A DNA stretch of 61,662 nucleotides, counting the filler, from Asterionella formosa (Eukaryota), in NCBI GenBank assembly GCA_002256025.1. It is 6 parts of 6 records of this genome, joined end to end, with 100 filler letters (N's around TTAATTAATTAA, not from the genome) between each part and the next. Parts side by side here need not be neighbours in the genome. Positions count along the whole stretch, not along the records: positions 41,192 to 51,380 come from NKIB01009789.1; 5 more parts are not named here. The stretch is one strand, 5' to 3'. Position 1 is the stretch's first letter, and each line of letters begins with the position of its first letter. Shown one piece after another: positions 8,916 through 58,961 of this stretch. The notes beneath the pieces are model-generated. The model saw nothing but the letters and a program-made list of their open reading frames with translations, made no database searches and was not told the origin of the DNA. A program made the position numbers and the translations under genes.

Positions 8916-9267
8916 TTACCCACATACTACCAATACTACCGGTAGGACGAGTATTGTATTATGATGTTGAGGCATGTCGATAACTTCTCAGAATCGGATA
9001 CATTCTTATTCATCTGATTTTGTTTCGATGTGGACATCCAGTGCATATTATCGATGATAATGCAAATTTTTTTATAATATTCGATATTCTTTTAGTAAAC
9101 AAAAATAATTATTTAAAATTTAGCTAGGGAAATATTCTATCATTGACAGAAATTATTCTTCATTTGCTACATATTTAGTCCAAAATAATATTCACGAGTT
9201 TCCCACCAGATTAACTTGTTGTGCATTTAGAAACACTTTTGTGCAAGGATGGTATATTCTCACATGT

Positions 9268-11475: not shown

Positions 11476-11633
11476 TATCAATACCTGGGTCCAGTGCACC
11501 GCGCGAGCACAGTGCAGACCAGACCAGTGTAACCACCAGATCTAGGTACACCGGCAATCATGCCCCAATGACAGCAATAGAATAATCATGATATTGTAGC
11601 TCACCTTTGTTATTGACAAGGTTCCCCTCAACA
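11476..11633 (+). repeat. 5' LTR
   Basis: Matches 16949-17106 with about 9 differences in 158 nt by manual alignment; ends TCAACA. Confidence 0.95.
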
Positions 11634-11820
11634 GAGCTACAATATCTGTTCTTCCTCCCTTCGTCTCCCTCAACGTTGCAGCTTCTTCTCTTTGCTCTGC
11701 CATACTAGCAAAGCCACTGCGGTGCATACGAGCATTTGATCAAGCGCCTGATTCCTAATAGTATCACCGGCTTTCTTGCTGCATCTCCAACACCTTTCAA
11801 ACACTGCGTCCTCCATCCGA

Positions 11821-16940: not shown

Positions 16941-16948
16941 TGAGGGTG

Positions 16949-17106
16949 TATTAATACCTGTATCCAGTGCACCACGCGAGCACAATGCAGACCAGACCAG
17001 TGTAACCACCAGATCTAGGTACACTGGCAATCATGCCCCAATGACAGCAATAGAATACTCATAATATTGTAGCTCACCTTTGTTGTTGACAAGGTTCCCC
17101 TCAACA
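16949..17106 (+). repeat. 3' LTR
   Basis: Direct repeat of 11476-11633, preceded by the PPT and followed by TSD GATTA. Confidence 0.95.
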
Positions 17107-23370: not shown

Positions 23371-24175
23371 GTTGACTGTGGTGAAATCCAAGCTATTGTT
23401 GTATCTATGTATGATATACTGGTAAATGATGCATCCTATATGTACTGATTCTATGATGATAATAATTGGGTTTCTAGTGACTACATTCAAAGCAGTCAAT
23501 ATGGAATCCTACATTTAGGTAACTTTGGGAGAAAAAAACCTAAACGTAATGCGTTTGGATAACTTATTGGGATATGGGAACGGAATCCCCTAAACGTAAT
23601 TCATTTACGTTGGGTTTTTCACTCCTGATAGCATCGTTTTTTAGGGTTACCGAAACCAAAACACTGTTTGGTTTGTGTTTTGGTCTAGGGTCGAAGTTTT
23701 AAAGTTTACAAATCTGCATTTGGTAGAGTCAAACCGTGTTTTTGCCCTGTTCAGTGGGTCATTCCAATTTTTTTTAGTGGGTCACAGTAATTTTTTTCTG
23801 GTACCCTGGTACCAATAGCTACCTGTTGCTGTATACCGGTATGCACCTCGGAATTGTAGGTGCCATACGTCACACATGAGCATGGCACTTGCGCATACGC
23901 TCATGGGCGGTATAGCACGTATGATGTGTTATTTATTGTCTACAGCATACCGGTGTATGCATTTCCGTTAGGACATTATTCATATATTAATAAAAGTATA
24001 TGATGTAAAATAAATCTAGCCGCGTCATACGTAAGATAGCAATGCAAAGCACATCAACAAAAGTATCCATCAGCAATCAGCCACCAAAATAAATCTCTGT
24101 GCACATTGAAACAATAATAGGTCGTACACTCACTCGCATTTCATCGTAGTTTGACCACAACACTTCATCACCATC

Positions 24176-26505: not shown

Positions 26506-29500
26506 CTATTGCTTCATCGCTTCCAGTGTAAAAGCGTGAAGATCTAACTTGAGCTGCTGGAGTTCAATGTCTCGACCCAAAAGCCGTTCTTCTAAACTGC
26601 AAAGCCGATTGAGAACTCTATTTGTCGCATCGATTTTGCCTTGCTTGGAATAACTTCCAGTGTCTGAACCAGAAAAACGATCAGATCTGTCATCGTAGAA
26701 AGTATAATCATCGCCAAGTTGTCTTAACAACGGTTCTCCTCGAATCATGTTCTGTTCATCAAATTCCAAATTTTGCAGTTTCTCTTGGTTCCCTTTTAGA
26801 TGTGTTTCTTGAGAAATTAAGTTTTCTCTCCAGGCTGTCTTGGCAGCCAAGTCAGAAGTCTCGCGTGAAGTATCTGATGTTGACAACGTCATCCGATAAT
26901 ATGGATGCTCCAGCGATGGGGGCACTCTGATGGACGCACATCTTTGATGGGGAATTCTATTGCGAGTCTCAACAGATTGCATATCCCGGCTTTCATCTTC
27001 TCTTTCGAATAAATATGTTGGTTCAGTTATCTCGCTGCACATGGACGTATTTTTGAGGATACTAACATCTACCGTTGGGGTACTTTGCAGATCTGGGATC
27101 ATGGTCTGTTCCTTTAGTCCAAGAGGGCGCATTGAGGAATTTTTTCCTGTTCGATGAGGAGCTGGACCTACGGAAGGCGTTTCTTTCTGTTCCTTATCAT
27201 TTGCGACAGACCAAACAACGTTTCCATTTGAAAAGCACTTAGCTTTCAAATCAGAAAATGAACATCGAGGATCATACCGTTCCAACAAATGGCTCAGGAA
27301 AGATAGTTCACCGTTCCACTCATGTCCATCGTGCGATTCCTGGCGTCGGGTGTAGTTTACCTCAGTGGCTCTGGAAACGAAATCGATGAGATCTTCCTTC
27401 ATCGTCATTGTATCCGCAATCCCTGGAATCAACGAGTTTTTGGCATTCTGTGAGTATAAATACCCAACAATCTCCTGCGAAGAAGCGATCCAATTCTCTG
27501 GAACCTGATCGACTTCTTCCAACATTGCTGCTGTGAGGATCGACAAAGCCTTTTCTCCCCGCATAAGAACCATTCCCATCATCATCAAAGGAAGTAGATT
27601 CTTGATGGTCTCTTTTGGATTTAACACTGGAATAGGGAATGGTATATGAGTGTCAGTTTCAGTGGGCACTACGGGCACTCCACTGGCTTCATCGAGAAGA
27701 TACAAGAAGCCACATTTTCGTTTCCGATAAAGACCAATGAGATCATTTGTAAGGAGATTATGCTTTGCCTCATTGAAAGCCCAGCCATCTGTCTGTACAA
27801 ACTCAACCTTTCCCTCTGAGAATTGATTGGCTTTCCTTTCAAGAATGTGATGGATCTTGCTGGGTTGGGTAAATTCTAAAAGCAAATTTGCGAACTTTAC
27901 AGCTGTATTTGCGGAAGCCGCTGACTCAAGTGACAAGGAGCCATCATGTTTCCTCTTCAACTTATAGGGCAAGATAACAAAGCTTGTCGGAAAGGTGCTT
28001 GCTTTAACATTGAAAACTCGTTTGGCTAATGAACTCACATTTAGAGTCGCTCGCTGAGATCTAAAGTGTTCGCTTGATTTCGTGTTTCTCAGAATAGACC
28101 GTCTTGACGACACTGAAGATGAAATCGATAGCATGCTACCAGAAGATAAAAATTTCTGCTTCTTCGTGTTGTTGCCTTCTAATCGGGATCGGATGACTTT
28201 GGCGCAAGGTGAAATTGATATATCTAATACTTTTTTCCCCCCATAAGTTTTCATTGCCGACAATTTCTTCACGGCGTTCAAATCAAGAGAGTTCACAATT
28301 CGCTCAACGCTTAGTACATAGTTGTCTTTTTCGTCAGCCATGGACTCATCAAATGTACACATCCAGACCCATGCAGATCGAGCGGCTGGATCAAATAAGC
28401 TATCGTCAAAATCAGACATTTCAGCATGAAATTTGGCCTCAGCACGAATGAGGGACTCAATACGCTGCATTCGATCAGCATCTTTGCGGAAAGGAAGAAT
28501 ATTTGGATAAAAGGCAAAGATGAGGTCAGACCTGCGTACTAGGTCTTCCGCATGGCTTCCATTGTCCATCACAGATTGGGTCCACTTTACACCATCTTTT
28601 CCTGTTTTGGTTTCTTGGTCATGCTTAACTGATTCATCAGACAAATTTTGATGTCTGCGACTTTCAAGGAGTTCCAATGGGAGTGCATCACTTTTGAAAA
28701 CAGACTGAAGTGCATTGAGATCGCAAGGGACAGTAGCTGCCTCTGGATAGGTTGCTAGAACTATTTCAAGTGTGTTGTACTGAACCATAAAGATTGACGC
28801 AATATGAAGTGGTAAAATTCTTCCGACGCTGCCTCGTCGACGACATGATGCACGAGTAGCAGCAATCGGCTCCAATACAATATCAATGGAAAGTGCCATT
28901 TCTTGATGCAGCCGAGTGAGTTTTGCCATATCTTCTCCACTTGAAATACTCCCATTTTGAAATTTAAAATGCCAATCTGACTCCCACTCAAGAAGGCGAC
29001 GGGCTAACAAGTGCACAGGAAGATCACTGTTCTTATCGGGCACTGCACATGCTTCCTTAAATGCCCATGCAACAATTTCAATAATAGAACGGAACATGAT
29101 GATATCATCAACAAGGTGATCTAAAATACTCAAAAGATCGGTCTTTTTCTTCTTCCTGAATCGATCTGGGAAACATCGATGGCAAGCTACATGAAGAGCT
29201 AGTCTGCCATCAGTTCGCATTTTCCCCTTGGCTAATTCTGGCTGTCCATTAAGTATTGTTTGGATTTCTTCGGGAACTGCAAATACTTTGTTAAGAGTGG
29301 CAAAAAACTCCTTCTTGGTTGTATTAGATTGAAAAACAGCACAAGCAGCACCAGCACCATTAACACATGCAGCAGATACCCTCAATATATCATTGACACT
29401 GGAAGTATGATTTCTGTTTTCCTGAATTGGTTCCTTATAATTTTTTGATTCATTGGAAGGGGGGACTTCATAGATTCCATCGACAATGCTGTTGAAGGTT

Positions 29501-30573
29501 GATATAGCCCAGTTGTTGTTATCTTTCTGCTCATCTTCTTGTTCTGTCAAAACTGGCAGTGCATTGGATGGAATGACTTGCATCTCGAGCTCATTCATAT
29601 TAGCAATGTCTGGACTAGTTTTATTCACCTCAAAATTTTCATACCACAGAAGATTTCCATTGGTATATGGTACAATATCAATAACATCAGATGTTCCCAA
29701 GATGGAAGTTGTAACTGCAAGATCTTTATTCAAGGGGGATTTTTTTGTAAAAATAAACGGGGCATTGAAGTCATTTGAGGTATCTCGCTCATCACTAGTG
29801 CAGTATGTTGAAGTGGGGAAGGCATACTTGGGATCACAGTGAAAGCTGAAGTCGACATCAATATTTCTATTGACCTTCGCTTTAAGTCCTTGGTCATCTT
29901 TAGAACATGCTGCAAAAGCAGCATGGTTTACTTCTTGCTTCGACCCCATTTGATCCTGACCAGTTCTCAACCCAGTTGCTATAGACGTCGGATCTCCACC
30001 CTGCAATGGAAACTTTTGCATCTTCTTGGCTTCCAGTTCCTGGTCTGATGCAGTAAATATAGCCCAAGCAGCATCAATTGCTTGTTGCTGCACATCCCTT
30101 TGACCCTGTCTTTCTATCTTGGCTGCAGCACTTGTGGGTCCTCCTGGCTGATGTGAACCTTGTTGCATCTCATCTTCCGATGTCGAAATGCTTTCGCAAC
30201 TGGACAAGGAGCTTGAATCTTCTGAGTTTGCTTGTTCAAGTTTTCTGGCATAGTCATCATACGTGACAGACTTCCTCCCTTGTCGTAGATCGCGCTCCAC
30301 TTCCTTCTGTTTCGCCTCCTTTTCCAGTTTCGTTTTCGCTGACCTGGGAAAGAGTCGGAACTTTTTCTTCTCGCGGTCCTCTAGAGTTTTGCGAAATCCT
30401 TTGACAGTCTCTTTCACTACTGACTTGATTGCCTTAACTCCAGTGCCTTTTGCATTGTAGATAACCTCTACGCCAAGCGAAACTAGCTCTTCTCTCAGTG
30501 GGAACCTAGGAGGCTTATCGCAAACGCACGTGACGCAAATGTCGACATTGTCGAGGACTGCGTATTGGACCAT
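26506..30573 (-). CDS. Large hypothetical protein with degenerate ankyrin-like repeats and a C-terminal coiled coil
   Basis: Uninterrupted 1355-aa ORF with ankyrin-like GRLALHVAC, DLPVHLLA and ILPLHIAS, and a heptad-rich C-terminus. Confidence 0.85.
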   Translation of the reverse strand: MVQYAVLDNVDICVTCVCDKPPRFPLREELVSLGVEVIYNAKGTGVKAIKSVVKETVKGFRKTLEDREKKKFRLFPRSAKTKLEKEAKQKEVERDLRQGRKSVTYDDYARKLEQANSEDSSSLSSCESISTSEDEMQQGSHQPGGPTSAAAKIERQGQRDVQQQAIDAAWAIFTASDQELEAKKMQKFPLQGGDPTSIATGLRTGQDQMGSKQEVNHAAFAACSKDDQGLKAKVNRNIDVDFSFHCDPKYAFPTSTYCTSDERDTSNDFNAPFIFTKKSPLNKDLAVTTSILGTSDVIDIVPYTNGNLLWYENFEVNKTSPDIANMNELEMQVIPSNALPVLTEQEDEQKDNNNWAISTFNSIVDGIYEVPPSNESKNYKEPIQENRNHTSSVNDILRVSAACVNGAGAACAVFQSNTTKKEFFATLNKVFAVPEEIQTILNGQPELAKGKMRTDGRLALHVACHRCFPDRFRKKKKTDLLSILDHLVDDIIMFRSIIEIVAWAFKEACAVPDKNSDLPVHLLARRLLEWESDWHFKFQNGSISSGEDMAKLTRLHQEMALSIDIVLEPIAATRASCRRRGSVGRILPLHIASIFMVQYNTLEIVLATYPEAATVPCDLNALQSVFKSDALPLELLESRRHQNLSDESVKHDQETKTGKDGVKWTQSVMDNGSHAEDLVRRSDLIFAFYPNILPFRKDADRMQRIESLIRAEAKFHAEMSDFDDSLFDPAARSAWVWMCTFDESMADEKDNYVLSVERIVNSLDLNAVKKLSAMKTYGGKKVLDISISPCAKVIRSRLEGNNTKKQKFLSSGSMLSISSSVSSRRSILRNTKSSEHFRSQRATLNVSSLAKRVFNVKASTFPTSFVILPYKLKRKHDGSLSLESAASANTAVKFANLLLEFTQPSKIHHILERKANQFSEGKVEFVQTDGWAFNEAKHNLLTNDLIGLYRKRKCGFLYLLDEASGVPVVPTETDTHIPFPIPVLNPKETIKNLLPLMMMGMVLMRGEKALSILTAAMLEEVDQVPENWIASSQEIVGYLYSQNAKNSLIPGIADTMTMKEDLIDFVSRATEVNYTRRQESHDGHEWNGELSFLSHLLERYDPRCSFSDLKAKCFSNGNVVWSVANDKEQKETPSVGPAPHRTGKNSSMRPLGLKEQTMIPDLQSTPTVDVSILKNTSMCSEITEPTYLFEREDESRDMQSVETRNRIPHQRCASIRVPPSLEHPYYRMTLSTSDTSRETSDLAAKTAWRENLISQETHLKGNQEKLQNLEFDEQNMIRGEPLLRQLGDDYTFYDDRSDRFSGSDTGSYSKQGKIDATNRVLNRLCSLEERLLGRDIELQQLKLDLHAFTLEAMKQ

Positions 30574-31470: not shown

Positions 31471-32360
31471 AGTTGTATTTCATCATGAAGAAGTGTAGTC
31501 GGAGTATATATATTTACAGCACTACCGGTAAATTGCGGGGAAACTAACTAATTCCCAAATAGGAATCATAATATTTCATTTATAAAAGTAGCCTAATAGA
31601 AATATTTTACTTTTTTTATAATGGTTTTGTCATCCTGTGTCACAGTAGATGGGTGGTTGACAACATTTAGGATTTCCCAAAAACCGATAGCATCATTTTT
31701 GCGTCAGTTGACCAAAACCAAAACCAATCCAAAAATAAGTTTTTGGGTTTTGGTTTGGGTCGATGGTTAGCAACGGCCTAAATGAATATTCATGATATTT
31801 TTTATTGTTTATATTGAATTTATGTTGCTGTATGTAGATTTAATATAACTCTACCCCCAAAAGGCATACGGGTATTACCCTACACTCAAAGGCACATACC
31901 GGCATATAAACCAATACTAGAGAAACGGTGTACCAAGGTACCTACCTAATGACAACAGATGATGAAACTACCAGTAGTACTTATTTTACCTACCAAGTAC
32001 CGGTACATTACATCTAATACATGTGGTTCAAGTATGGCTGGTGTAATTTTACAAGACCGGGATACTTCGGCCAATCTGGAGCAGGTGAGTAAATTCAATT
32101 CAACCAATCAGAATATGTGTAGTGATGCGGGAACTCACCCTGGAGTCTTTTCGGACAGAGAATTATTCAGCAAAACATACCTACGCAAGACTCTAAGTCT
32201 ACGAGGACGTTTTTGCACGTACTAATTCCGATTCCAATATTTTGGCGACTGTTGAAAAAACCGATCGGGTCGACTTTTTGGAAGAGGATTGCACTACATC
32301 TACGGGGTTTCATGACGATCAAAATTGATAGCCGTGTACCCTATAACGTCAGGAGTTAAC

Positions 32361-42389: not shown

Positions 42390-42543
42390 GGTGATCGTTT
42401 CGTCTCCTTGATTCTTGTTAGTTCACTACCAGTACTCTTTCTCTTAATACCTTAAAATTGCACTCAATTATTGCTCCCTCAAACTTTTGTGAGACATGAA
42501 ATAATAATAAAAAATCAAGTTGACATCTACCAAGGATCATGTT

Positions 42544-42938
42544 TCTTTTTCATATATTTTAGACACCATGCTGAAACCTGCCTGGTGACATCATCGTTCT
42601 TTCCTAGCTTTGTGCCCATTTATTGCTACCGGTATGTATCATATAAGTTTGTGTAAACTGAACTTTTGGTTGTACCAGGTACCAGGTACCAGGTACCAGG
42701 TGCCAGGTGCCAGGTACCCTGGTAGCATGTACCTGGTACCTGGTACCAAATCTTTTTCATTTACCGGTATTTTAGACACCATGCTGAAACCTGCCTGGTG
42801 ACATCATCGTTCTTTCCTAGCTTTGTGCGCATTTATTACTATGTATCATATAATAATAAGTTTGTGTAAACTGAACTTTTGGTTGTACCAGGTACCAGGT
42901 ACCAGGTGCCAGGTAGCAGGTACCTGGTACCTGGTACC
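42544..42938. repeat. ~200-bp tandem duplication ending in (GGTACCW)n arrays
   Basis: Copies start at 42544 and 42751 (TCTTTTTCAT...TTTTAGACACCATGCTGAAACCTGCC...) and differ by CCGGTA insertions and heptamer copy number. Confidence 0.92.
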
Positions 42939-42990
42939 GATACTTCAAACAATACATACTTGAATACGGGTACCAGTACCAGGTACCTGG

Positions 42991-45062
42991 TGAGCGATGT
43001 CGCTCAACTACAGAAATACCTACAAGGTTAGGTTTACATAGGTATATCAGAACTCTATCAGGAGAGAACTCGACTAACACCTTCTTGAATACTTTAGTGT
43101 CAACCTAGGAGATCGAGTTGCACACAAGGATTAACTAATAAGCTCATATGTTCAACAAATACTACTACTTCTAGTTAGATACTTCACTTTGAATTCAAAA
43201 AGAGTCCAATTAGAATTTATAATGTTGATTTCCTCTCAAGTTCCAGTGGTCCCATTGATGAAGGATAACAACATGATAAACATCAAGACTCAGACCTCTT
43301 TGTGTATCCTTACAATCCAGGTCGATATTTGGAGTCTTTCCACAAAGATATGATCAATTGACACTCAGGGGAAGCTTGTTGATTGATTTCAGTAAATCCC
43401 ATGATATTGCTAACACATATACCTTCAGTCCAGCAGATTACTTGCTTGTTCACCTACTGCTACAAAAGATGGCTCACAGATATCGTCTTGTCTGACTGGA
43501 TGAGCGTTGCAATACACCCAGATGCTCAGTCCCACCATAACAGTCTCAACAAGAAAGTCATGGTGATGTGGCTGGAAGATTACCTTCTTCATGATATCTC
43601 TGAGAGTCAATAACTGCCATGATATTACTCAATAAAACATTTCAACATGTTTATAATCGACTTCGCTGCCTGTCTCAAGACCTTAAAGAACCTCCTAAAA
43701 CTCATGATAACTCATCCAGAAGATCAAGAGGTTTCCGCCAAGGAAGATTTGAGGTTGATTGTCATTTTGCTTGATCAACAATGCGTGGCAACAAGTGTTT
43801 GAATGGAACAATGAAAAGAACACAAAATAATTGAATCACTTGGTTTTGACTTACTTCAAGAGTCAACAATCATTCAAAGATCAACTCAAGCACATCCTCA
43901 AGCATGAGTTCTACCATAAGCCAAAATCGACTTCGCATCGCTGAAGGCAATCGTGTTATGTCGAGAGAACACGCGTGCCTGGTGTCAATTTTCTAACACA
44001 AAATCGTATATACATAGTTGAAGTTGAAGACAATCCAGTGATGCGCGCATCAAGAAACCAAGCGGGACTGGTGTCAAATTTTTAACACGAAATTGTCTTT
44101 ATTTAGTTGAAGTTGAAGTCAACTATATAATGCATCAAGAAACCAAGCGTGATGACTTGTATAATGCATCAAGAAAACAAGTGTGTGAATAAATAAAAAT
44201 TGTACACAATATTTTGACACAAAGCGGTTGTGGCAGTGTACATGCAATCATGATCGCAGCCAGCCATGCATGCAGTTGTGAACCAACAGCTAAACATCAG
44301 GCCCCTCAAGTTATCTTACTACTAACACTACTTACACTGCTAACCCACTTACTGTTCCTCTTGCATGGAAATTCTACGTATAACAAATTATCATGCTGAC
44401 ACAGCTAACCCTATTCATGTTTTCTGCCTTGCATGCATATTTTCTTCAAATCCATGGGTTAATTCTATGAGGATGTCTGGTTAGGACTTTTATGAATCTG
44501 CCCAGGAAACTTTAGTGGTCATGAACCCTCCTGATGGTCAGCTAGTGGCCTATGTGCCTAACAAAAAGCAGCCGAATGCTGAACAGATTGCACATGTGCA
44601 ACAATAGCAATGCTATTATTATATATACATGATGAACCTTTGCATATGTCTCCTGTCCGTCATCACCTGGATATCATTTGCTATTTACAGCAGGAGGATA
44701 ATTACGGTCTGGATACCGCATTTTTTTAATGTGGGATATTCAAATTGCATGGCAGGATTCATGTATCCCATTCATGATATCACGAACTATACATACTACT
44801 GAACGAATTAATATTTGTCATATCAAACCTTTTCATAGGTGCAAGGTTTTTCTTGGTGTGGGAGAGTGAGCGATCTCGCTCAACTACAGAAATACCTATA
44901 AGGTTAGGTTTACATAGGTATATCAGAACTCTATCAGGAGAGAACTCGACTAACACCTTCTTGAATACTTTAGTGTCAACCTAGGAGATCGAGTTGCACA
45001 CAAGGATTAACTAATAAGCTCATATATTCAACAAATACTACTACTTCTAGTTAGATACTTCA
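42991..45062 (+). mobile_element. Non-autonomous LTR retroelement (TRIM/LARD-like, 2072 bp)
   Basis: 196-bp LTRs TG...CA at 42991-43186 and 44867-45062 (3 differences), TSD CCTGG on both sides, purine tract GGTGTGGGAGAG before the 3' LTR, and no long internal ORF. Confidence 0.93.
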
Positions 45063-45574
45063 CCTGGTACCTGGTACCGGTCCTGCAATTCGTATGTACA
45101 TCATATCTTCCAATGCTCCCCCTTTCCGAAGCAAGGTGTCAAGTTTGCATTGTTGTCGCTTGTGTTATGGGTTCGCCAGCTATGGAGGTCAGCTTTTTAA
45201 ATGCTCTGTGTCACATTCTTTATGTTTTTTAGAAAGCAATCTTGTGATTAAGCTTTTCGACATGTGATTACCAGGAGATTCGTTCATGGTGGTGCCATTT
45301 GTGCCTTCATCTTTGTCTCTCGGATGAGTTGTTTTCATGGTGCCATTTGTGCTTTTGTCTTTGTCTTTTGGATGATTCTTCTTGTTCAGCTCCTTCAGCT
45401 AGATGACAGAGGGGGAGGAAATCCAGAACACTGCTGTTATTGTCATTTACAGCAACAAAATCATCACTGTCATCAAGCAGTAACTCCAGAGGCAACAATA
45501 TGATTGATGATGATGCTATGGTTCATGATGGGGAATTTATTTTAATATTATATATTAATAATATACTGTTTAAG

Positions 45575-45680
45575 GAATGGCTTACGGTAGTTGGTTGAGC
45601 ACGTTGCCTTTGATCTGAGGTTGTGAGGTTCGATTCCCGCAATCTTTTTGAGAAGCAATTGTTGGGTTCGACTCCCACAC
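45575..45680 (+). ncRNA. tRNA-like sequence (tRNA pseudogene or SINE head) with duplicated B box
   Basis: A-box/D-arm-like GGTAGTTGGTTGAGC, B box GGTTCGATTCC (45627), a T5 run, then a second T-arm GGGTTCGACTCCCAC (45664). No clean acceptor or anticodon stem. Confidence 0.5.
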
Positions 45681-47959
45681 TCCTTACCATCCCGCACGGT
45701 CTTGCCTGGTGTGCAAGAAATAGTGGGTTGCCCTGGCCCCTACAAACAGCTTGTGCCGCCTTCCTAGGCGGTCGAAGTTTCCCCTAATGCTGCGGCTAAG
45801 ACAATCATCTTTCGTGAAGGGTGGTTGGGGACTCACCTACACTAACAAAACTAGGGAAGCACAGGTCTTGTTGGCAGGCAGCACAATGAATTCTTGCCTT
45901 GAAAAAGGGGAGTAGGAATGGGCTATAAAACAGATTATCATTTTAATAATATACTGTTGTTGCTTGACTGTCAATATTTTCTGGAGGGATATACAGGGGG
46001 AGAATAAAATTTTAGAGTACTTTAAAACTAAACTATGCACTCATGCCTGGATAGACACAGGAGAAAAATTGATAAACTTTAGGGGAGCTCTGCTAATTCA
46101 CCTTTTTGTTTGTTCCATATAACTTCATGAGAGTCTCACATACTGCAGTGCATTCTTCATTATTGTGTACACCCATTTGTAGTGGGGTTGCCCTTGAAGA
46201 GAGGCGGCGGCACTATTGATGATGGTTCCTATGTTGTGAAAGAGGATAGGATAGCGAATGACATCAAGGACAAAGGAGGAGGAGGACAGTAGGGTGAGTC
46301 AATAAATAAACCTGACAAGCTCAATAGGAGTTTGGAAGGTGGTATGTTAAAAGAGTGATTAGAGTATATTTATAGTAGACTTTGTAGAGATAGAGGGTAG
46401 AGCAAGAACACAAGACAGGCGTTCACAGACAAACAGACCAACACATGAATCTACATCATGATAGGACAGTGATTCATAACATCCTACAGTTGTAGGTGTT
46501 GCCTTGTGTGGTGTCTTTTTGTTTTAATGTTTGTGATGCGTTTTTGCAGGGGCAAAAATGCGATGGCTGTATCGATAATGGTTCCTATTCCTGTATTTGT
46601 CTTGTGTGAGTACCTTTTGTCATTTTTTTACCTGTAATTTTTTGCCTGCAATGTTATGGCGACATTACCAATGATGGCTCTTATTCCTGTAGTTCGCTTG
46701 TGTGCTGTCCTTTCATCGTGATATTTGTGATGATTTTGCGCCTGAAACGATGCAGGAATGGCTTTTTCGATGATGGTTCCGATTCCTGTAATTTTTGCAG
46801 CTGATTTCCTATCCTCGTGGTGTGTGTGGTGAGTTTGCGCTTTCGCTGACAATGTGGCGGCAGTATTGATGCTCGTTCTCTTTTCTGTAGTCGTCTTGCG
46901 TGATAGCTTGTCTCTGAGGTTCTTGAGAGTACCGCTGTCGCAATTCGTCTCTTTTTCTTTCGTGTCATTGTAGATTGGATCATACGGAGGCGGGTCTGCT
47001 GTCAGGAGAGTGTATTCTGATTCGAAATCGATCATTGTATAGTCGTTTTTCTCTGTTCCAGTGGTATTCAATAAATCATGAAATGCCAGTGTAGGTACCA
47101 CATGTAGGATGTGCTCTGAAACCGTCATGTTGCTAGTAGGGGGGGGGGGGAGGGGTGCGCCATGGTGGGGAGGATGTACCCCTTGCCCAGGGCACAACCT
47201 AGACTCACCTGTAGACTCCTGGTACAATTTCATTGGTAGTAACTTAGTATGCTGTTTTGCATTCCACTTTTGCGGAATTATTTCTGGAGGGATATATACA
47301 TGATTTTCGCTGGCATGTCGGTATTGAAAATTTATGTTAGACCGTGATACAATTTGATGTGGAGAATGGAGGAAATTCAGTTCATATCGACTTACAGTTG
47401 CTGATACATTTTCAAAAAAATTCAAATGAAGGGATGCCCGATGAGAAATGATAAGAATGGCCCTTAGAATGACATGTGCAACAATGATCATGTACCAGTC
47501 ATGGTATCATAAACTGTGCTTGGTACTTGATACAAAGTACCTGGTACAAGGTGTAACCGATGTATGTACACAAACATACATACATATAATACCATATACC
47601 ACTAGATATTTCATAAAGGAAGCAATATATTTATATGTATACATAGTAGAGCGAAGTTTATATCATATGTAGCCTATCATACCACTTCTGTATACCGGTA
47701 GGCTATAACCTTTATTATTTGTACTTGGTCCAACGATGGATACCAATGATACCTGTGCACATGCATCATCAGCACATTTTTTACGCTTTTTAGGTGTTCT
47801 ATGATACAGGTTTCGGTTACCTGGTACTCCGAGTACTCCATTATAGTCAGAATGTCAGAATAATCATTTGAATATTCCGCTGCTTGTGGGCTTTCCCTCA
47901 ACTTGAACAGCATCATGCCAAACTGTTCCAGATGCTAACAATGAGTAGAGTAAGGACCT

Positions 47960-48235
47960 CTGTACCTAGTACGCTCTTGGTATGATACCCCAGTCCAGTA
48001 TATGTTGGGTGCATGCTCAATGGGGAGAACTGTTATTTGCAATCCTATGAGGCCTGCTGTCATAGTATGATAGGCAAGTGGATGGTACAAGCCTCTTATA
48101 GGATAATCGTGGCATTTGACCCACTCTGGGTGGTTAGTTCCTTTCTGGAATATTTTGGGAATTCCCATGCAATAGAAGGTTTAGCATATTTGTGTCAATA
48201 ATTTGCGTGGTTTCTTTGATAGCGCTAATTACAAC
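47960..48235 (+). repeat. Old LTR-like repeat, diverged copy of ~51125-51380
   Basis: Shared blocks GGTGCATGCTCAAYRGGGAGAAYTGTTAT, GCATTTGACCC and CTGGAATATTTTGGGAATTCCCATGCAA. Confidence 0.8.
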
Positions 48236-48805
48236 TGTAGCTTCACTATTTTACCCATCTTCCATTAGATAGGTAACTTAATCGGTTTATCAGACCCACG
48301 TAGCCTCTTCACTACCACAAAACCCGGTGTCTTGTACCCCTCAACGTACACAGCCATGATTGATTTTATATAGAGGGGATACTGGTAAGACGACATGGTT
48401 GCCAATGTGGATAATTCCAAGGTGCAAAGGCACCACATTGCACAGTGTGTAGAAATGGCATGGGCTAGAGTCTCAATTGAAAGAAGCAATTACCAATACC
48501 AGGAGGAGCATTGGATCTGAGGGCTTTGCTGCTGTGAACTTGTCAATTAAAATAGGATCGGATCATCTGATAATCTATTTTAGCATTTAATTTTAGTGAA
48601 ATAATCATTATTGTCAATTAGATTTATTATGGCAAAGCTTAGTCGAATAAATTAAGCTGATGTCTACAAAATACTAAACCGAAGTGATTCTACTGTTGAA
48701 AATGCTAATTTCTAATACCAATTACTAATGTTCTAATGTAGATTGGTTGAAGGACTTGAAGGCTTGTCCAGTTTTCATAACATCTATTCCTGAATCTGGA
48801 TGTCC

Positions 48806-49190
48806 TCAAGGAGCCGGAATGAACAAACTCCAAGGCAGGTTATTATGGCTTTTTGCCCTTTTGGCAGCATTTTCACTAGAATCACAGAGCTCACTGACTT
48901 GAGCAAACTTGTTGACAAACTTGTCGCTTGTTTTCTTTAAAGCTGCAATATTTTTGCCAAGGAATCCAATGGTGCACAGTTCCGTCCCATCAAGAATCAG
49001 AACAGCCTTGATACTACCTGCCTGATCAACTCCATCAATTGGGACCACTGATGTGATGCCTTGAACCGAACACAATCATTAGGCCTCACAATTGATCCAC
49101 AGCAGGCATGCTGCTCACAGCTTCTTCCATTGGTAGTACCTCTGAGGCCAAGGATTTGGCCATCACAAATGTCATCCGCAATTCTCATGT
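48806..49190 (-). pseudogene. Frameshifted fragment of a small HIRAN-like, probably transposon-associated protein
   Basis: ORFs 48997-49206 and 48806-49075 join to give ILGLRGTTNGRSCEQHACCG...IKAVLILDGTELCTIGFL...FAQVSEL. Family assignment is from memory only. Confidence 0.4.
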
Positions 49191-49959
49191 TGCTCCATGA
49201 ATACACCTACTGGTACCTGCATAGTATGTGAGAATATTTTCATAAACCCGGCATGTGATGATACTTTACAGGAAACAGTAATATACGAAAATAAAAATGA
49301 ATAAAAAGAATACGTTTATGTTGTGTTATTTTTTCTGTACACATAAAATAGTTGGGAGTGTTGTGCCAGATGTACAAAGGGGTACAAGACTATGGGGAGA
49401 TATGAGACACCAAGTTTTATGGTAGCCCTTATGGGTTGATTGTTGTGATATTCGAAGGAGAAACTGCTGGCCAGCGAGCAAATTTTTGTTCTCCATTCTG
49501 GGAGTCCGCTTTTGCGCATCGTTGTTCAGTGTTGGGGTCATCATCATGCCACCAAGATCCAAGAAGATTCGACAGGGTGGAATGGTCTCTAAGAGTATGA
49601 TTGTGGCGCAATGGGCAACAAGAGCACAAGTTCGCAAAGACCAGGGACAGGATGAGCTCCTGGAGCCGCTAGTTGATGTTGTTGAGGCGTAAGGGGTTGT
49701 GGAAATAAACCGTCTTCAGGAGGTTCCAATCCCTGGAACAGACCTGCAAGCAAGTGATTGGAGTCAGAGTGACAGTCCCTCTGGACCTGAAAACCCCAGT
49801 GATATTGGAGACAACAAAAGCAACAATAATGATGATGATCCATCAGGAGCGTCAGTAAATGATCATTTTGCCATTGCGCAAGCATTCATCAAGTTCAATT
49901 GTGTGATGGAAGAGCCTCAGTTTTGAGAAAAATCGATCACCTTTGGAATCTAGCCCAAT

Positions 49960-51480: not shown

Positions 51481-51856
51481 TGTACAAGTAAAGCCTGGTA
51501 TGTATTGTTGTTCCACCCAAATTCAAAACAGCCAGCAATTCAACATTCCTCCGTATTCACGGTATGTAGACGATAACAGTGATTTCGTTTGCAGGGAAGG
51601 ATGTATCATTGTTTCGATCAATGCAACAAGGAACATCGGAACCAAACGCCAAGTAGAAGGAACTATTAACCAGCAAGGCTTGAGAAAGACAAACCGTATC
51701 AATCCTCGTAGGCGAGACAACAACAGGATCCGGATTTTGTTCCTACCAAAATACGAACCTTCCTCAGTTCTCAGACACGAAGCATTCCTTCGCCAATACA
51801 TACATCAGACGACAGATTATCCGCAGAAGCAGCTTGAGAGGCATTATCAGGAAAAC

Positions 51857-54800
51857 ATGGAATACGGCGGTAGCCTATCATTCGAAGCATCTGACCGTCG
51901 TTCATCACGAGATGATGGGATGAACGCCGAGGAAATTCCTCCAGTTGGTCCGTCCAATGATGCCCCTCATGGTCTCACACGTGATTCTCGAGGCAGCGCT
52001 GTAGCTTCTCGTGCATCTAAGAAACGAAAAAGGCTACCTGGGAAAGCTTGGACTTTTGAGGAGAAATCCATTATCGTGGAGGGCCTCAAAAATGGGTTGA
52101 GCTCCAAAGAAATTCACGAGAAATCATTACTACCAAATAGAACGTTAGTGGCTATAATGTTGCGAGCCACATCGTTAAAGAATAATAATAATGATCTAAC
52201 TGTCCAACCTGATCAGCTCCATGTGCCCATGGATCCATCAAATGTTGTTCCTCAAGTGACGAAAGTTGATTTCGGAAGCGGAACTGTGACGCCTGTTGCA
52301 ACAAAGAAGCAAAAACAGGGACAATGGACTGAGGAGGAGAAATCTGTTGTAAACATGGGTCGTATGAAGGGGTTGAGCTACAAAGCAATTCATGGAATGC
52401 TCCCAAATAGATCGATTAAAGCGATCGTGTCGCAAGCTAAACTATTGATAAGAGATAATCATGCTGCAAGTGAATCTGCTACAGACAGTACCAATCCTGT
52501 CAGACCTGTCAGCAAGCGCAAGTCTGTGGACCGTTCCATGGAGGGAACACGTCAAGGCCTTCCAGAAAACTCTGATAATGAGCCTATTCGACCGGATCGT
52601 GCTGGTGAAGGTTTTCAAGAGTTTATTTGCAAAGAATTCGAACGACCAGTAGACGACAAGGAAGACAGGGATATCGAAGGTTCTGATTGGGGTGCTGAAC
52701 CTGCCCAACCCCAAAATCTTTTGAATCCATCGAATGGCGACCCTCAAGCGATATCAGCTAAATTTGAAGGCGGAGCTATGACGCATGCTGCAACAAAGAA
52801 GCAAAAACAGGGACAATGGACTGAGGAGGAGAAATCTATTGTAAACATGGGTCGTTTGCAGGGGTTGAGCTACAAAGCAATTCACGATATGCTCCCAAAT
52901 CGATCGATTAAAGCAATTGCTTCGCAAGCTACATTATTGAGAAGAGATAATCATACTGCAAGTGAATCTGCTGCAGATGCTGTCAATGCTGGTGGACTTG
53001 ACAGCAAGCGCAAGCCTGTGGACCGTTCCATTGAGGGAAAAGGTGATGGCCTTGCAGAAAATTCCGATATTGAGCCTATTCGACCCCGTCGTCCTGGTGA
53101 AGTTTTTCAAAATTTCATCAAGAAAGAATTGGAACGACTAGCATACGACAAAAAGGGAAGAGAAATCGAAGGTTCTGATTTGGGTGCTGAACCTGTCCCT
53201 CCCCAACAACTTTTGAATCCTTCGAATGATGATCCTCAAGTGAGGATTGCTGTTTTCGGAGGGGAATCTGTACCGCCTGTTGCAGCTAAGAAGCGAAGAA
53301 AGGGACAAGTTGCAAATAGATGGACTGAGGAAGAGAAGTGTATTGTAAACATGGGTTGTTTGAAGGGGTTGAGCTACAAGGCAATTCACGACATGCTCCC
53401 GCATAGATCAATTAAAGCGATTGCGTTGCAAGCTACATTACATGTAGGAGATAATCACGCTGCAAGTGAATCTGCTGCAGATACTGTCAATGCTGGTGGA
53501 CCTGTCAGCAAGCGCGAGTCGGTGGACCGTTCCATAGAGGGAAAAGGTGAAGGCCTTGCAGAAAATTCCGATATTGAGCCTGTTCGACCCCGCCGTCCTG
53601 GTGAAGTTTTTCAAAATTTCATCAAGGAAGAATTGGAACGACTAGCATACGACAAAAAGGGAAGAGAAATCGAAGGTTCTGATTGGGATGCTGAACCTGT
53701 CCCTCCCCAAAACCTTTTGAATCCTTCGAATGATGCTCCTCACGTGAGGATTGCTGTTTTCGGAGGGGAATCTGTACCGCCTGTTGCAGCTAAGAAGCAA
53801 AGAAAGGGAAAAGCTGCAAATAAATGGACTGAGGAAGAGAAATCTATTGTAAACATGGGTCGTTTGAAAGGGTTGAGCCACAAAGCGATTCATGATATGC
53901 TCCCAAATAGATCAATTAAAGCGATTGCGTTGCAAGCTACATTATTGACAAAAGAGAATCATGCTGAAAATGAATCTGCTGCAGATACGGTCAATCCTGT
54001 TAGACCTGGCAGCAAGCGCAAGGCTGTGGACCGTTCTACGGACGGAAGAGGTGAAGGCCTTCCAGAATATTCCGATATTGAGTCTATTCGACCCCGTCGC
54101 TCCGGTGAAGTTTTTCAACAGTATATTAATAAAGAATTGGAACGACTAACAGCCGGCAAGGCAGGAAGGGAAATTGAAGGTTCTGATTGGGTTGCTGAAC
54201 CTGTCCAACCCCAAATTCTCTTAAATCCATTTAAAAGCGATCCTCAATTGATATCAGCTGAATTTAAAGGCGGAACTGCGACGCATGTTGCAACTAAGAA
54301 GCAAAGGAAAGGACAAGCTGAAAAGAAATGGACTGAGGGGGAAAAATCCATTATTTATATGGCTCGTTTGCAAGGGTTGAGCTTTAGAGCGATTCACGAA
54401 ATTCTACCAAATAGATCGATTAGAGCGATTGCGTTGCAAGCTACATTATTGATACAAGATAACTACACAGCCAGCGAAACTGCTACAGATACCTTCTATC
54501 CTCTTAAACCTGTCAGCAAGAACAAGCCTTTGGTCCGTTCCATGGAAGGACCAAGTAAAAGCTTTCCAGAGAGTTCTGTTATTGAGCCTATTCGACCTAG
54601 CCGTGCTGAAGTTTTTCAAGAGATCATTAATGAAGAATTGGAACGACTAACAGTCGACAAGGAAGGAAGGGACATTGAAAGTTCTGATTGGGGTGCTCAA
54701 CGTGTCCCCCTCCAAAATTGTTTGAATCTATCGAATAGTGACGCTCAAGAGACCTCAGCTGATTTTGATGTTGGAACTTTAACTTCTGTTGCAACTAAGC

Positions 54801-57411
54801 AACTAAATAAGGTAAAAACTGCACGTAATTTGAATGACCAATCCGGTCAGCTGCAGAATGCAGTGGAGGATTCCAAAAATGCCCCCCAGCTGATGCAAGC
54901 TGATGTTGGAGGCAATTCTGAGGCGCTGAAAATTCCTAGTCCAGAGGAACTTGCTCAGTACGTTGAGGAAACTTCTTGGAGGTACAACAGCAACAGTATC
55001 CCCGAGTCGGTTGATCCAAATAATTTTCGTGAGCTACTTCCACTAGCACCACCAGCTCCCCTGCCTCCATTTCCCCAAACTGGAGATTGTGTCTGGACAT
55101 TCAATGAACAGTCGCGGGTTCTCTTAGGCAGTTTCCGTAAAGAAGGAGAATGCACCACAGTGAATGATGAAGATAGAGAATTTCTCTTTGACATGATGGA
55201 GCGAAACGACGTGACAGTTGTTACGGAGGGAAATGCTGACGAACTAGATCCTGACATCTGGAGTCTTGAATTTATCAAAAAAAGCGTAGGAGCAAAGTAT
55301 CACCACAAATTTCGTCGATTCACGGCGCTATCGCCCAATCATCCGACAGATTACCAGGAAGTGGATGGCTATTTGGTAATGAAGATTTCGGATTACTTTG
55401 AATTTCTTGCGAAAAGGGAAAATGTGATGATGAAATTGGACTCAGGTGAATCAATAGATCAGGACCTCACGTATGTGTACCTTGATGCGGATGACCAGCA
55501 AAAGTCCCTGAATCTTTTGAATGATGTTGTTTATATGATTGATTATGATATTGTTAAGATGTTGCCAGAACACAATGATGACCTAATGTCAAAGATGAAG
55601 CTGCCAGAGTTTCTACCAGGTGGTAGGAAATGCATGATGAACGCGGTAGGTGAATCTTTCTTTACTTTTTCATTTGCAATTCTTTTTCATCACTCTTAAT
55701 TCAATCCCTTGACCAGATTAATCAAAATGGACGACCCTTCATGGGACCAAATTTGTACATGACGCGTAAGTGTTGGCGTTCTGATTTTGATTTGTTGCCT
55801 TGATTCACTCGACTGGGTGAACTAAACTGTTTTCTTCCTTCGAACACCTCATGACAGCTGGCGGATCATTCACAGCAGTTCACCAAGATGGTTTTGGAAC
55901 TGTTGACTCAGGTCATCTTTGCCTGTCGGGCTTCAACGAAGTAAGTCTGGTTTACCTTGAATCCCTTGTGCATTTTCATCCAATAAGGAACTAAACTTAG
56001 TTCTAACTTCCCACTGCAGGTTGTAATGCTCCGCCGAATGCCCGAAAACCACAAAGGCAACGCTCTTCGTTTACTTTATGGAGAAACCAGTTATGATCCT
56101 CTTCATGAGCTGCCACATGGTGACTTGCTGGTGCGTTTGTTTGCATGTTTGCCACGTTTTGGTACCCTGCATATAATAACTAACTGTTTATTTGCATGTT
56201 TCTCCAATCAGGGAACGAAGCCTAAGTGGCCAACGAAACTAGGCATTGAACTTTGCAGGAAGATGAAGTAAGTAAGCTAGTAATTTCGCCTGTCGTGCTT
56301 GTTGTATTTTTCTTGTCATCTCAGCTTTTGTTCCAGCTACTGCCCATCGGTATTCATCCTCTCAGCTGGTCAACAGGTACACATTAATAAAGGTAGATTA
56401 CATGCCTTCAGAAAGTTGACCCCTGGTGATGTTGCCGACAACGACTGTCACAAAGATCTCCGCCTTGACATAATCAGCAACACATCGCGAGAAATTCTAT
56501 TCAAGAATTGCATATCAGTCGCTTGGGATTGGATGTATCTTGGGAATTCAAGTGAAGGCATAAATAGAGAGGTGGTATCAATTCTTGAATGCACAGCAAT
56601 TAACAGAGTGTTTGGGAAGATGTCATTGGCCATTCCTGAGCTTGCTATCCTTGAATTGGCTCGAAAGCACAGCAGTCTCCTTATGTCCAAAATATCAAAT
56701 GATACTTTTCTTGCTTTTAAGAAGCCATCCTGTGCCAAACAAGCAGGCGACTCAACAATGATTTTGGCTGGGATCTTGCCTGCGTTGCAAGTTGTTGTTG
56801 GGCAACATGTAGACATAACTCAGGAAACGATTAAAAAGGAACTCAAAGGAGTCAAAATTGCCAAAAGGCCAAACTCTTGGGAAAATCCTCAGTTGTTTGC
56901 CTTGGATCCTTATGGAAACAGTGATTTCTTTTGTAAACTGTGCTCCTGCGAATTGTCAAATCTTTACATGCATTGTGATGGCTGCGAAAACTTGCTTTTC
57001 AAGGATTTTAACATTTGTGTGCAATGCCATGCTGAAAGAAAATATGCTGTGAAGGTTGCTATGCATCCCTGCAATCATGAGAAAAGACACTGTGCAATAA
57101 ACCATGTTGGAAATATGGCACATACCCGTCAAAAACGTTGTCCGTGTAAGAATGGCCCAGCCTGCTCATTTTGCTCATATTGTTTGGGCTGCTCCTGCAC
57201 GTGTCATACTTCATTCACCTTGCACCAAAGGCTTCTTAATAGCCATGATGAGCTTGAACTATGTATTTTGGCCACTGCAATTGTGGGGGATAAGAAACTG
57301 CGCTATGCTGATGAAGTTGCACCAAGACTGAAGGCAGCCATCCAAAGTGCTACCAACAAGTTGACCGCACAAAATATAAAAATTAGTTCACAGGCGAAGC
57401 TGTCATCTTAA
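51857..57411 (+). CDS. JmjC-domain protein (putative histone lysine demethylase) with six Myb/SANT-like repeats and C-terminal Cys-rich Zn-binding region; exons ~51857-55645, 55717-55765, 55858-55940, 56020-56130, 56212-56267, 56337-57411
   Basis: Five GT-AG introns (71, 92, 79, 81, 69 nt) give GPNLYMTPGGSFTAVHQDG...HINKGRLHAFRK...SVAWDW (HxD...H triad), then CKLC...HCDGC...CVQCH. The start codon is uncertain because the frame is open from 51500. Confidence 0.88.
52220..54800 (+). repeat. Intragenic tandem repeat, five units of 492-504 nt, each with one Myb-like motif
   Basis: TGGACTGAGG (WTE) at 52325, 52817, 53321, 53825 and 54329, with a sixth diverged motif at 52049. Units 3 and 4 are the most similar. 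Confidence 0.95.
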
Positions 57412-58961
57412 AGACCTCACAGCACATTGACTCGAATTGATACTCCTTCTGCACTGCCATTGTGACCTGCCACATGCATCATGACCTCCTCTGAGGATGT
57501 GATTTTATACTCAAACCTTTTTCCAATTAGGAACTCAATGGCAGCAATCAATCAATAATCAGTCTAGAAGTGACCTGACTAATACTTTGGCCATCCTGAC
57601 AAATTGGGATTTTGACCCTTTGTACTACCCCTGTAGAAAATGTGGAGTAGATTCATTTAGGAATATAATAAAAATGTGGCACTTGAAAGCCTCTGGAGCT
57701 CACTACTCAAATCAATCATGAAATCATTATGTACTCAAATACTTCATAAAAATGTGCTTCCTCTGTCCAATAACTTGTGTCAGCTATAAAAAATTATCCA
57801 GGGACATTTTGACTAATACAATTTTCTCCAAGTTAATCATTGTGCAAAATGCTGTGTATCTTCCACCCTGTTATGCCACCTTGTTAGTGGGATGACAAAT
57901 CCCTGCCACCCACGCATGGCTTCATTGGGGCCATACACAATGTTGATGGTAGCACCAACAAATGTCATGACCTACTCACTTGGTTACAAACCAAAACTGT
58001 TGGGGGTGATTGGATGCCATTGATCCCAAGAGTCGTATACCCATTGTAGCTACTGAAATGCTTCAAAATGTCATGCCATTGTTGGGCCAGCTCCAATTTT
58101 GCCACTTGCAATGCCACCCTGGCCACCAACACTCTGTTGGTCCATTTCCATCGCCTTGTACTTTTTGCACTGATTTTCCTATATTAAGTTCATGTCGTGA
58201 TTCATATTCCTATGGAATCTGATTAGGTCAAGTGGTGAATGAATATTCGAGGATACAGAGTGGCTACTTTTGCCTTTGATGATTTCAAGGTTGAAGGTGA
58301 ACTAGTTGAAAGTAGCTTGCCTACAAGTGTAGAAATAGGCTAGTAAGAATACGCTAATTGACATATATATATATACTACTGCTACAATGAAGACTCTAAC
58401 CGGGAAAATATGTAGCTGTAGCAAATCTATCGAATATGCGAATTTTGTTACACAGAAATAGCTGTTGCAGGTATTCGCGTTCATCTGATGATCGTGTCAT
58501 TGTAGTCGGGCTCAGTAGAAAATAAGAGCTGCAATCAAAGCTATTTCTTTTCGGAAAGGCTACAATTTGTCTACAATGATTATTTCATCAAATATAATTC
58601 GGTTAACAAATCAAAGGATCAGAAACGTTGGTAGATATGTTTTATATAAACTGGCACCCGTAGTTCTATAGAAAAAGGAGTCGCATACCGGTACTATATT
58701 AGTGTACATCGAATATCGTTGTAGTCAGTCGAAAATGAGAGGTATTTCCGAGATACTTCAAATAGTTAACAGTGATATCTCTAGCAAGTGGCTGGCCTTA
58801 GCGAAAGTAGCAATGGATGTATAGCTAGCTGTGTTAAATCGAATTGAATGATATAATTTATTTTGTGGTTTTTCAAATGATGGATCAAACATCTATATCG
58901 TTGTCTCTTTCTATAAAACAAATTTCGGTAAATAATCGCTATTTTATCGTGTTTTATCACC

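Follow-up and report, generated by a model that had tools for sequence, protein, structure and literature searches.

A TA-bounded CC(W)GG palindrome recurring upstream of genes in diatom-like DNA, with transposon excision as a possible source

TA-bounded palindromes in the window

The window analyzed here is a 61,662-nt stretch of the Asterionella formosa assembly GCA_002256025.1, made up of six pieces of ~10.2 kb separated by N/TTAATTAATTAA spacers, and its subject is a pair of short palindromes bounded by TA on both sides, TA-CCGG-TA (TACCGGTA) and TA-CC(A/T)GG-TA (TACCWGGTA, that is, TACCAGGTA and TACCTGGTA), which occur as single units and in arrays. The window has a GC content of ~42%, and open reading frame (ORF) calls and Pfam searches revealed long, intron-poor ORFs, a Copia reverse transcriptase, ARM repeats, a flavin adenine dinucleotide (FAD) oxidoreductase, and a UFL1-like protein, the closest protein cluster of which is mostly Bacillariophyta. 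The label "diatom-like" is used below for the window organism and for related metagenome loci with a GC content of 0.38 to 0.49; it is meant as a lead and not as a determination.

A tandem duplication with a period of 213 bp was found by repeat search and alignment at 42542 to 42754 (copy 1) and 42755 to 42945 (copy 2). At 42627 to 42634, copy 1 contains a private TACCGGTA (...attgcTACCGGTAtgtatc) where copy 2 has a plain TA (...attacTAtgtatc), and at 42762 to 42769 the relation is reversed, with a TACCGGTA private to copy 2 (catttaCCGGTAttttag) and a plain TA in copy 1 (catatattttag). Both clean 6-bp CCGGTA indels between the tandem copies (2/2) fall at a TA, and the copies are otherwise few substitutions apart. 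A preliminary description of this DNA had presented the duplication as an internal control with reciprocal CCGGTA at TA, and sequence and alignment bear this out. In a contig of a strain ~1.5% divergent, from sequencing run X4, the match to the window ends exactly at the TA at 42627 to 42628, where CCGGTA begins, and is followed by 259 unaligned letters; over 47398 to 48416, the X4 strain has 8 additional letters.

Three (GGTACCW)n arrays accompany the duplication. Tandem Repeats Finder (TRF) called array 1 at 42672 to 42748 (period 7, 10.9 copies), consisting of A-units, degenerate units, and then T-units, and array 2, inside copy 2, at 42885 to 42938 (period 7, 7.7 copies). Array 3 is split into a left half at 42969 to 42990 (TRF call, 42969 to 42991) and a right half at 45063 to 45078 (TRF call, 45062 to 45078). 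GGTACC is itself palindromic, and the polarity of an array unit is set by its seventh base alone, so that a run of A-units and a subsequent run of T-units make up an inverted repeat; the segment 42660 to 42760 folds computationally as a hairpin of -31.1 kcal/mol (z = -6.8), as anticipated by the earlier claim that the arrays flip polarity and can fold back. The exact W-W neighbors in the window arrays are all in the same orientation (5/5; AA 3, TT 2), and slippage is therefore enough to explain the growth of the window's own arrays.

The window contains 11 copies of TACCGGTA (mean in 100 dinucleotide shuffles, 0.27; maximum, 2) and 15 copies of TACCWGGTA (shuffle mean, 0.20; maximum, 3). Under an order-3 Markov model applied to all TA-N(2-6)-TA words, with palindromic words scored on both strands, TACCGGTA was counted 22 times versus 1.34 expected and TACCAGGTA/TACCTGGTA 15 times versus 0.78 expected. 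The three words hold ranks 1 to 3, and the count against a Markov background proposed in the preliminary description thus returned them as the top outliers, a result for the window and not for the genome at large. The 11 positions given there for TACCGGTA are exact and touch all six pieces, and TACCWGGTA recurs as described, its 15 sites being those already listed plus 45068. TA stands on both flanks of 11 of the 80 CCGG and 15 of the 129 CCWGG occurrences in the window. Stop-to-stop frames of at least 150 amino acids (aa) make up 49% of the window, and 25 of the 26 motif starts are outside them, in keeping with the earlier statement that TACCGGTA always lies outside intact genes; the one at 31523 is at the edge of a 214-aa frame.

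Single motif units cluster near arrays. At 5442 to 5494, between divergent ORFs, a TACCGGTA is followed by a short array ending in TACCAGGTACCGGTA (word counts and TRF). Single copies of TACCGGTA were located by word count at 8937 to 8944, 11149 to 11156, and 58686 to 58693, and a single TACCAGGTA with flanks G...C was located at 18025 to 18033. The FAD-oxidoreductase ORF has a single TACCGGTA 342 bp upstream, at 23834 to 23841, which is 20 bp from CTGGTACCCTGGTACC, and the two single copies at 31523 and 31998 (31523 to 32005) are 1 to 1.5 kb upstream of the UFL1-like ORF. Three single units at 47538 to 47826, namely, TACCTGGTA at 47538, TACCGGTA at 47693, and TACCTGGTA at 47818, lie 47 to 327 bp upstream of the minus-strand ORF 46628 to 47491.

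This last group of sites is present in contigs from sequencing runs of other studies that were compared with the window (X1 to X3, one of which may be the window's own source sample). The X1 contig is identical to the window over 47399 to 48311, without differences or gaps, and spans the sites at 47538, 47693, and 47818. The X2 contig (47655 to 48422) and the X3 contig (47584 to 48424) likewise match without differences or gaps and span 47693 and 47818; contigs of both runs also span the array at 45062 to 45078 without differences. Because the contigs of these three runs are identical to the window there, an artifact of a single assembly is very unlikely. The motif is a real, strongly nonrandom feature of a diatom-like lineage.

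Retroelements near the arrays

Array 3 is split by a 2.07-kb long terminal repeat (LTR) element on the plus strand, 42991 to 45062, that was delimited by repeat search, alignment, and sequence. Its LTRs (42991 to 43186 and 44867 to 45062) are 196 bp long, 98% alike, and have TG...CA ends. The element is flanked by a 5-bp target duplication, CCTGG, taken from the array: the final CCTGG of the left half (42986 to 42990) is repeated as the opening CCTGG of the right half (45063 to 45067). No ORF of at least 200 aa was found inside the element, which we therefore regard as nonautonomous. A relative with 80 to 90% identity is present in metagenome contig L027 (reverse strand, ~1110 to 1320) and also abuts CCTGG-TA-GGTACC; from these sequences, the two may belong to a target-specific LTR family.

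Most of the region 42552 to 49700 behaves as a high-copy repeat in the sequencing runs. It includes a 372-bp element resembling a short interspersed element (SINE) at 45571 to 45942, with a 16-bp target duplication, TTAATAATATACTGTT, at 45555 to 45570 and 45943 to 45958. The summed X1 contig depth of this SINE-like element is ~1000x that of unique flanks. Its GGTTCGATTCCC stretch resembles a tRNA B box, and ARAGORN called no tRNA in the element.

A Copia-type LTR retrotransposon at 11476 to 17108, with ~160-bp LTRs that are 94% alike and RVT_2 ORFs (15193 to 16158), is not in an array. Metagenome contig L035 (1 to 9610) carries two tandem full Copia elements, 97% alike, with pol ORFs of 1,415 and 1,494 aa. 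Indels between these copies include TAGCTAGC and TAGCAGTAGC and no CC(W)GG units.

The words in related metagenome loci

Metagenome contigs were scanned for three array units, which yielded 123 loci totaling 502 kb. Two duplicate loci, L017 (of L016) and L044 (of L043), were left out of the locus analyses after the first ones. Four loci were treated as bacterial and left out of the location and later analyses: L021 and L029 had bacterial-type Pfam hits, L002 had TPR hits only, and L066, which was unscanned, was judged by GC content and record name. The loci with a GC content of 0.38 to 0.49 are eukaryotic and dense in genes, and they carry housekeeping genes as well as repeated DUF6824 domains.

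With the seed arrays masked, TACCWGGTA is ~40-fold overrepresented relative to an order-3 background in the diatom-like loci (257 versus 6.1 expected in 333 kb), and a slightly different locus set gave 300 versus 7.6. These loci contain 297 single units and 137 multiunit arrays. The feature is not local to the window. In the lineage of the window, represented by L027, L049, and perhaps L042 (11 TACCGGTA in 2 kb), the CCGG form is favored, and in other contigs the CCWGG form is favored. The symmetric control words TAGGCCTA, TAGGWCCTA, TACGCGTA, and TACCTAGGTA showed no enrichment in the loci.

TACCWGG is followed by TA in 1,258 of 1,490 cases in the related loci, and TACCGG is followed by TA in 133 of 234. 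In the eukaryotic loci with seeds masked, the spectrum of cores in TACC-x-GGTA is A 188, T 170, none 51, AG 17, CT 16, AT 6, C 5, G 4, and TA 0. The center of the core is W and almost never S (358:9). All six occurrences of TA-CCATGG-TA are in different loci, and TA-CCTAGG-TA is absent. With respect to the strand of the downstream gene, the central base is unbiased (59:51).

Neighboring units in the diatom-like loci are almost randomly oriented, with AA plus TT at 136 and AT plus TA at 80 (80/216, or 37%, inverted), and two-unit arrays are divided among TT 18, AA 17, TA 15, and AT 14. By comparison, in loci of other organisms (GC content above 0.49), GGTACCW neighbors are in the same orientation in 84 cases and inverted in 9 of 93. 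Long same-letter runs are also present in the loci (AAA 10, TTTT 4, and one run of seven A-units). The near-random orientation of units argues that slippage is not the main source of units in the diatom-like loci. The earlier suggestion that reuse of TA sites builds the arrays agrees with these orientations; in the window itself, the uniform orientation of neighbors requires no more than slippage for run growth.

Location was analyzed with ORFs of at least 180 aa as gene proxies. Expressed as sites per kb, density in the loci is 0.09 for ORFs and 0.30, 2.25, and 2.37 for convergent, divergent, and tandem spacers, respectively. When spacers holding seeds were removed, the densities were 0.08, 0.38, and 1.12 per kb for convergent, divergent, and tandem spacers, from 1, 5, and 36 sites, respectively. 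Divided into fifths, the tandem spacers contain 2, 19, 27, 36, and 31 sites, a skew toward the downstream start. Sites are found in 24 of 61 promoter-containing spacers (~40%), and their distance to the ORF start is broad, with the 10th to 90th percentiles at 169 to 1,415 bp.

Homologous copies can be compared in few places. Array length differs between them (the tandem copies of the window, L049 and L063, and L027). The only alignable orthologue-like pair involves the site at 31523, and its homologue in L049, at 88% identity, lacks the motif without a clean 6-bp indel. The cataloguing of insertions suggested in the preliminary description therefore rests on the two tandem-copy indels at TA: all-versus-all BLAST of the window pieces and loci, with 34 kb alignable, revealed no further clean CC(W)GGTA indels and only changes in array length.

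The diatom-like intergenic islands (L012 to L078) consist largely of other TA-bounded words, such as TAGCTAGCTA (61 times), TACTCGAGTA (24 times), TAGACTA, TACTAGTA, TACTACTA, and TAGGGTCTA; examples are L045 (9700 to 11250) and L014 (90 to 560 and 2420 to 2990). CC(W)GG thus seems to be just the strongest member of a broader set, a kind of TA grammar. In the window, these other island words showed no enrichment over the order-3 Markov model.

Origin of the palindromic units

The motifs may be products of a mutational process that converts TA into TA-CCGG-TA or TA-CC(A/T)GG-TA. The agent would most likely be a Tc1/mariner-like cut-and-paste element whose ends read 5'-CCAG...CTGG-3'. Its insertion would duplicate TA, and its excision would leave 2 to 3 terminal bases of each end, to be sealed by end joining, the central A/T being the third base of one end or the other. 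Judged by its sequences, the core set could represent joins between one end, trimmed to CC, CCA, or possibly CCAG, and the other, trimmed to GG, TGG, or possibly CTGG, as predicted for ends of this kind cut 2 to 3 nt inside. The single W-type units have G at position -1 in 152 of 245 cases and C at position +1 in 148 of 245, and the TA that was hit would have lain within GTAC, which every unit recreates. Events would concentrate in promoter-side spacers and at such TA sites, and units would pile up because earlier scars recreate GTAC. Replication slippage would then extend same-orientation runs, and an A-run beside a T-run would form a hairpin-forming palindrome.

Two sets of variant words bear on this scheme. 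The predicted "2+1" and "3+1" scar forms are enriched 2- to 4-fold in the loci. Among the one-mismatch variants of TACCGGTA, only TACTGGTA/TACCAGTA are clearly enriched in the window (10 versus 2.7 expected). CpG decay of TACCGGTA would give exactly these words, as expected for unselected scars, and they are also the predicted 3+1 scar.

Excision footprints of a TA-targeting, Tc1/mariner-like element are the best single explanation of the units, and we favor them tentatively as a possible and unproven origin. They alone explain the clean difference between TA and TACCGGTA, the center restricted to A or T, and the presence of CCATGG without CCTAGG. The overrepresentation of the words, the unenriched symmetric control words, the scarcity of sites in long ORFs, and the unbiased strand of the central base also speak for them. 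The preliminary description had proposed such footprints, and that proposal gains from the TA anchoring, the core spectrum, and the unit orientations and suffers from the failure to find a donor element or transposase.

Known members of the superfamily offer a close parallel. The canonical footprint of Sleeping Beauty is TAC(A/T)GTA, with an ambiguous A/T center like that of the present motif, and its self-pairing overhang with a central mismatch leads to one dominant footprint. For mariner, PMC2642840 states that footprints in vivo fit a 5' break 2 to 3 nt inside the element, and the Mos1 5' inverted terminal repeat oligonucleotide printed there is TA-CCAGGTGTAC, giving a 5' end of TA-CCAGGT. 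The likeness consists of a duplicated TA around a few bases that mirror the transposon ends. The present motif differs in that no donor or transposase was found in the searched DNA, a 5-base core is dominant (358 of 415 full cores), and one-sided forms are not enriched. In its workings the feature matches Tc1/mariner footprints, but a search of the available DNA failed to reveal the defining donor element, and for this reason it is not classed with them. Excision scars are usually rare, and here one 8- to 9-bp word class is 16- to 40-fold enriched across unrelated loci and independent environmental assemblies; to our knowledge, neither such a genome-wide word enrichment nor scar arrays have been reported for any Tc1/mariner family. 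Searches of the literature by motif and by topic recovered no description of the feature: no paper contained the array strings, and topic searches that combined diatoms with excision footprints, with mariner-like elements, or with promoter palindromes yielded nothing related; the matches listed for TACCGGTA were apparent primers or barcodes.

Several results weigh against excision scars, foremost the missing donor. Donor and word searches covered the 61-kb window and about 430 to 500 kb of related contigs. The window contains no TA-flanked CC...GG inverted-repeat element except the arrays themselves, a search for TACC...GGTA elements in the window and loci returned no donor, and a search of the same DNA for any TA-flanked, 9-mer-seeded inverted repeat found no element starting with CC. 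Apart from the arrays, the inverted-repeat scans picked up only low-complexity TAG/TAC runs, a nested hairpin in L039, and, in L050, one 22-nt pair whose first bases are not CC. Nothing but TA recurs after TACCWGG in the loci. A Tc1/mariner transposase family was matched by none of the 170 ORFs searched with Pfam (18 from the window and 152 from the loci, with six L066 ORFs left out); four ORFs matched Copia RVT_2 and one matched the Harbinger-type DDE_Tnp_4, and these were the only mobile-element hits. Since the sample is small and metagenome contigs break at repeats or undersample them, the absence of a donor from these contigs is weak evidence, yet a "very active" element would have been expected to appear and did not, and the claim of such an element with a matching terminal inverted repeat (TIR) family is left unproven.

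The scars themselves raise further difficulties. One-sided footprints (TACCATA and TACCTA) are not enriched in the loci (observed/expected ratio, 0.9 to 1.5), and the ratio of 4-, 5-, and 6-base cores (51:358:6) is not binomial and misfits independent 2- or 3-nt cuts at the two ends. By analogy with Sleeping Beauty, a single dominant 5-base scar would need a 5-nt overhang, CCAGG, a stagger that would be new for the superfamily. The W-type copies in the loci are mostly intact (300 exact versus an excess of ~90 with one mismatch), single W-type units sit within a longer palindrome, TAG-TACCWGGTA-CTA, and convergent spacers have a site density ~7-fold below that of tandem or divergent ones. The L049 homologue of the 31523 site differs by something other than a clean 6-bp indel, and the two CCGGTA indels of the tandem duplication could equally be two precise losses, as two copies cannot polarize the change.

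The DDE_Tnp_4 ORF lies at 16811 to 17988 (minus strand) of L076, a gene-dense, diatom-like contig, and has no evident TIRs. It may be a domesticated gene.

If the units were instead protein-bound palindromes, that is, dimeric transcription factor sites or promoter or chromatin elements kept by selection, with arrays as homotypic clusters, the intactness of the copies and the extended dyad would follow readily. The promoter-side bias, which persists without the seeded spacers, and the skew toward downstream starts would also fit, as would the 12 of 15 window sites that have an ORF start no more than 1.5 kb downstream, a count made without a control. The two related LTR copies, in the window and in L027, are inserted at CCTGG inside TA-CCTGG-TA as if tethered there, and diatom promoters do carry palindromic motifs, such as the ACACGTGC of iron-regulated genes described in PMC3491386. 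This origin is a serious rival but nevertheless seems somewhat unlikely. It leaves unexplained the step from TA to TACCGGTA through a clean 6-bp indel and the occurrence of CCATGG without CCTAGG; binding sites are not usually arranged in head-to-tail arrays with a common TA, in the window the CpG-decayed form roughly equals the intact CCGG type in number, the 31523 site is not conserved in its 88%-identical homologue, and distances to ORF starts are broad. DNA transposons prefer promoters too, and location alone is not decisive. Intrinsic dynamics of a palindromic microsatellite, without any transposon, are still less likely. Slippage, fold-back duplication, and quasipalindrome correction would produce the arrays, and single units would be templated-repair patches derived from them; the same-orientation neighbors in the window, the same-letter runs in the loci, the strong hairpins, the variable array lengths, the clustering of single units near arrays, and the failure to find a donor transposon in the window and loci all agree with this. 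However, the surplus of single units over multiunit arrays cannot come from slippage, the adjacent arrays, which consist of 7-mers only, offer no CCGG template for the private CCGGTA inserts, and a center that is almost always W is not predicted. The two-unit arrays are 1:1:1:1 in orientation, whereas the repeats of the loci above a GC content of 0.49 keep their orientation.

Two further origins carry much less weight. CCWGG could be the 5-bp target duplication of an LTR integrase, as a by-product or preferred target, with TA as the residue between duplications. Integrases favor palindromic 5-bp targets with a central W, and both the window element, with its CCTGG duplication within an array, and its L027 relative abut CCTGG-TA. 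Such an origin is nonetheless highly improbable: the isolated TACCGGTA arose at plain TA and not at an existing CCWGG, no mechanism is known by which removal of an LTR element would leave 2 bases behind, the Copia element at ~11476 to 17108 is outside the arrays, and the L035 Copia pair is ~300 bp from the motif cluster of that contig. An artifact of assembly, adapters, or sequencing, for which nothing was found to speak, is scarcely credible, given the identical X1 to X3 contigs across the sites and array described above, the enrichment of the same words in independent metagenome assemblies, and an LTR insertion that carries its target duplication within an array.

Excision scars and protein binding are compatible, as scars might form mainly in open promoter DNA and some might later be bound or kept. 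A fuller combination of the two, which we consider unlikely, would have a continuing TA-specific process in a lineage of diatom-like algae write CC(W)GG palindromes upstream of a large share of the genes, driven by a mariner-like transposase that is possibly domesticated or present in few copies, with the units then serving as protein-bound landing pads, that is, as promoter elements and as the target of an LTR family. If true, transposon scars, not transposon copies, would be the raw material of promoter architecture. A scar origin, if it holds, would mean that promoter DNA has been visibly shaped by cut-and-paste traffic and would reveal a birth route for a palindromic microsatellite; a binding-site origin, if it holds, would define a promoter element that is very common in algae of ecological importance with a barely known cis-regulatory code. 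Either way, the motif offers a simple experimental handle.

Other known systems resemble the feature in part. Target-specific LTR retrotransposons include Ty1 and Ty3, which insert at RNA polymerase III genes, and Tf1, which inserts at promoters; the likeness is that two related LTR copies are found in the same short context upstream of genes. The present case differs in that the analysis revealed only two copies and in that the target would be a 9-bp palindrome, not a gene class, and it concerns the neighboring element and not the origin of the motif. An ordinary heptanucleotide microsatellite would also have period-7 arrays that vary in length between copies, but the present unit is a 6-bp palindrome plus W, its polarity flips, 37% of neighbors in the loci are inverted, and it is mostly single. 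The iron-responsive ACACGTGC is likewise a short dyad-symmetric word upstream of genes, but according to PMC3491386 it has a fixed position at ~-200 and a small gene set, whereas the present motif is broadly placed, arrayed, and subject to a 6-bp indel between duplicates; the two are unrelated.

Three other candidates were rejected. The array itself could have been a miniature inverted-repeat transposable element consisting of TIRs only, but arrays with an A-start and T-end are no more common than the reverse (AT 14 versus TA 15; AAT 5, ATT 6, TTA 7, and TAA 2). A 7-bp target duplication of another superfamily is at odds with the half of two-unit arrays that are inverted, and a P-nucleotide or fold-back origin is at odds with a CC that is not templated by the TA flank.

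Other features of the window

The ORF at 51500 to 55699 encodes 1,399 aa and contains five internal repeats of ~504 bp and a Myb-like domain, with a subthreshold DUF6431 hit. A 1,355-aa ORF on the minus strand (26506 to 30573) matches no Pfam family at an E value of ≤0.001. The segment 6194 to 7488 holds tandem 129-bp ARM-repeat units, which are within ORF 5894 to 7045, and a 276-bp tandem duplication (6933 to 7488; 93%), which lies across the 3' end of that ORF.

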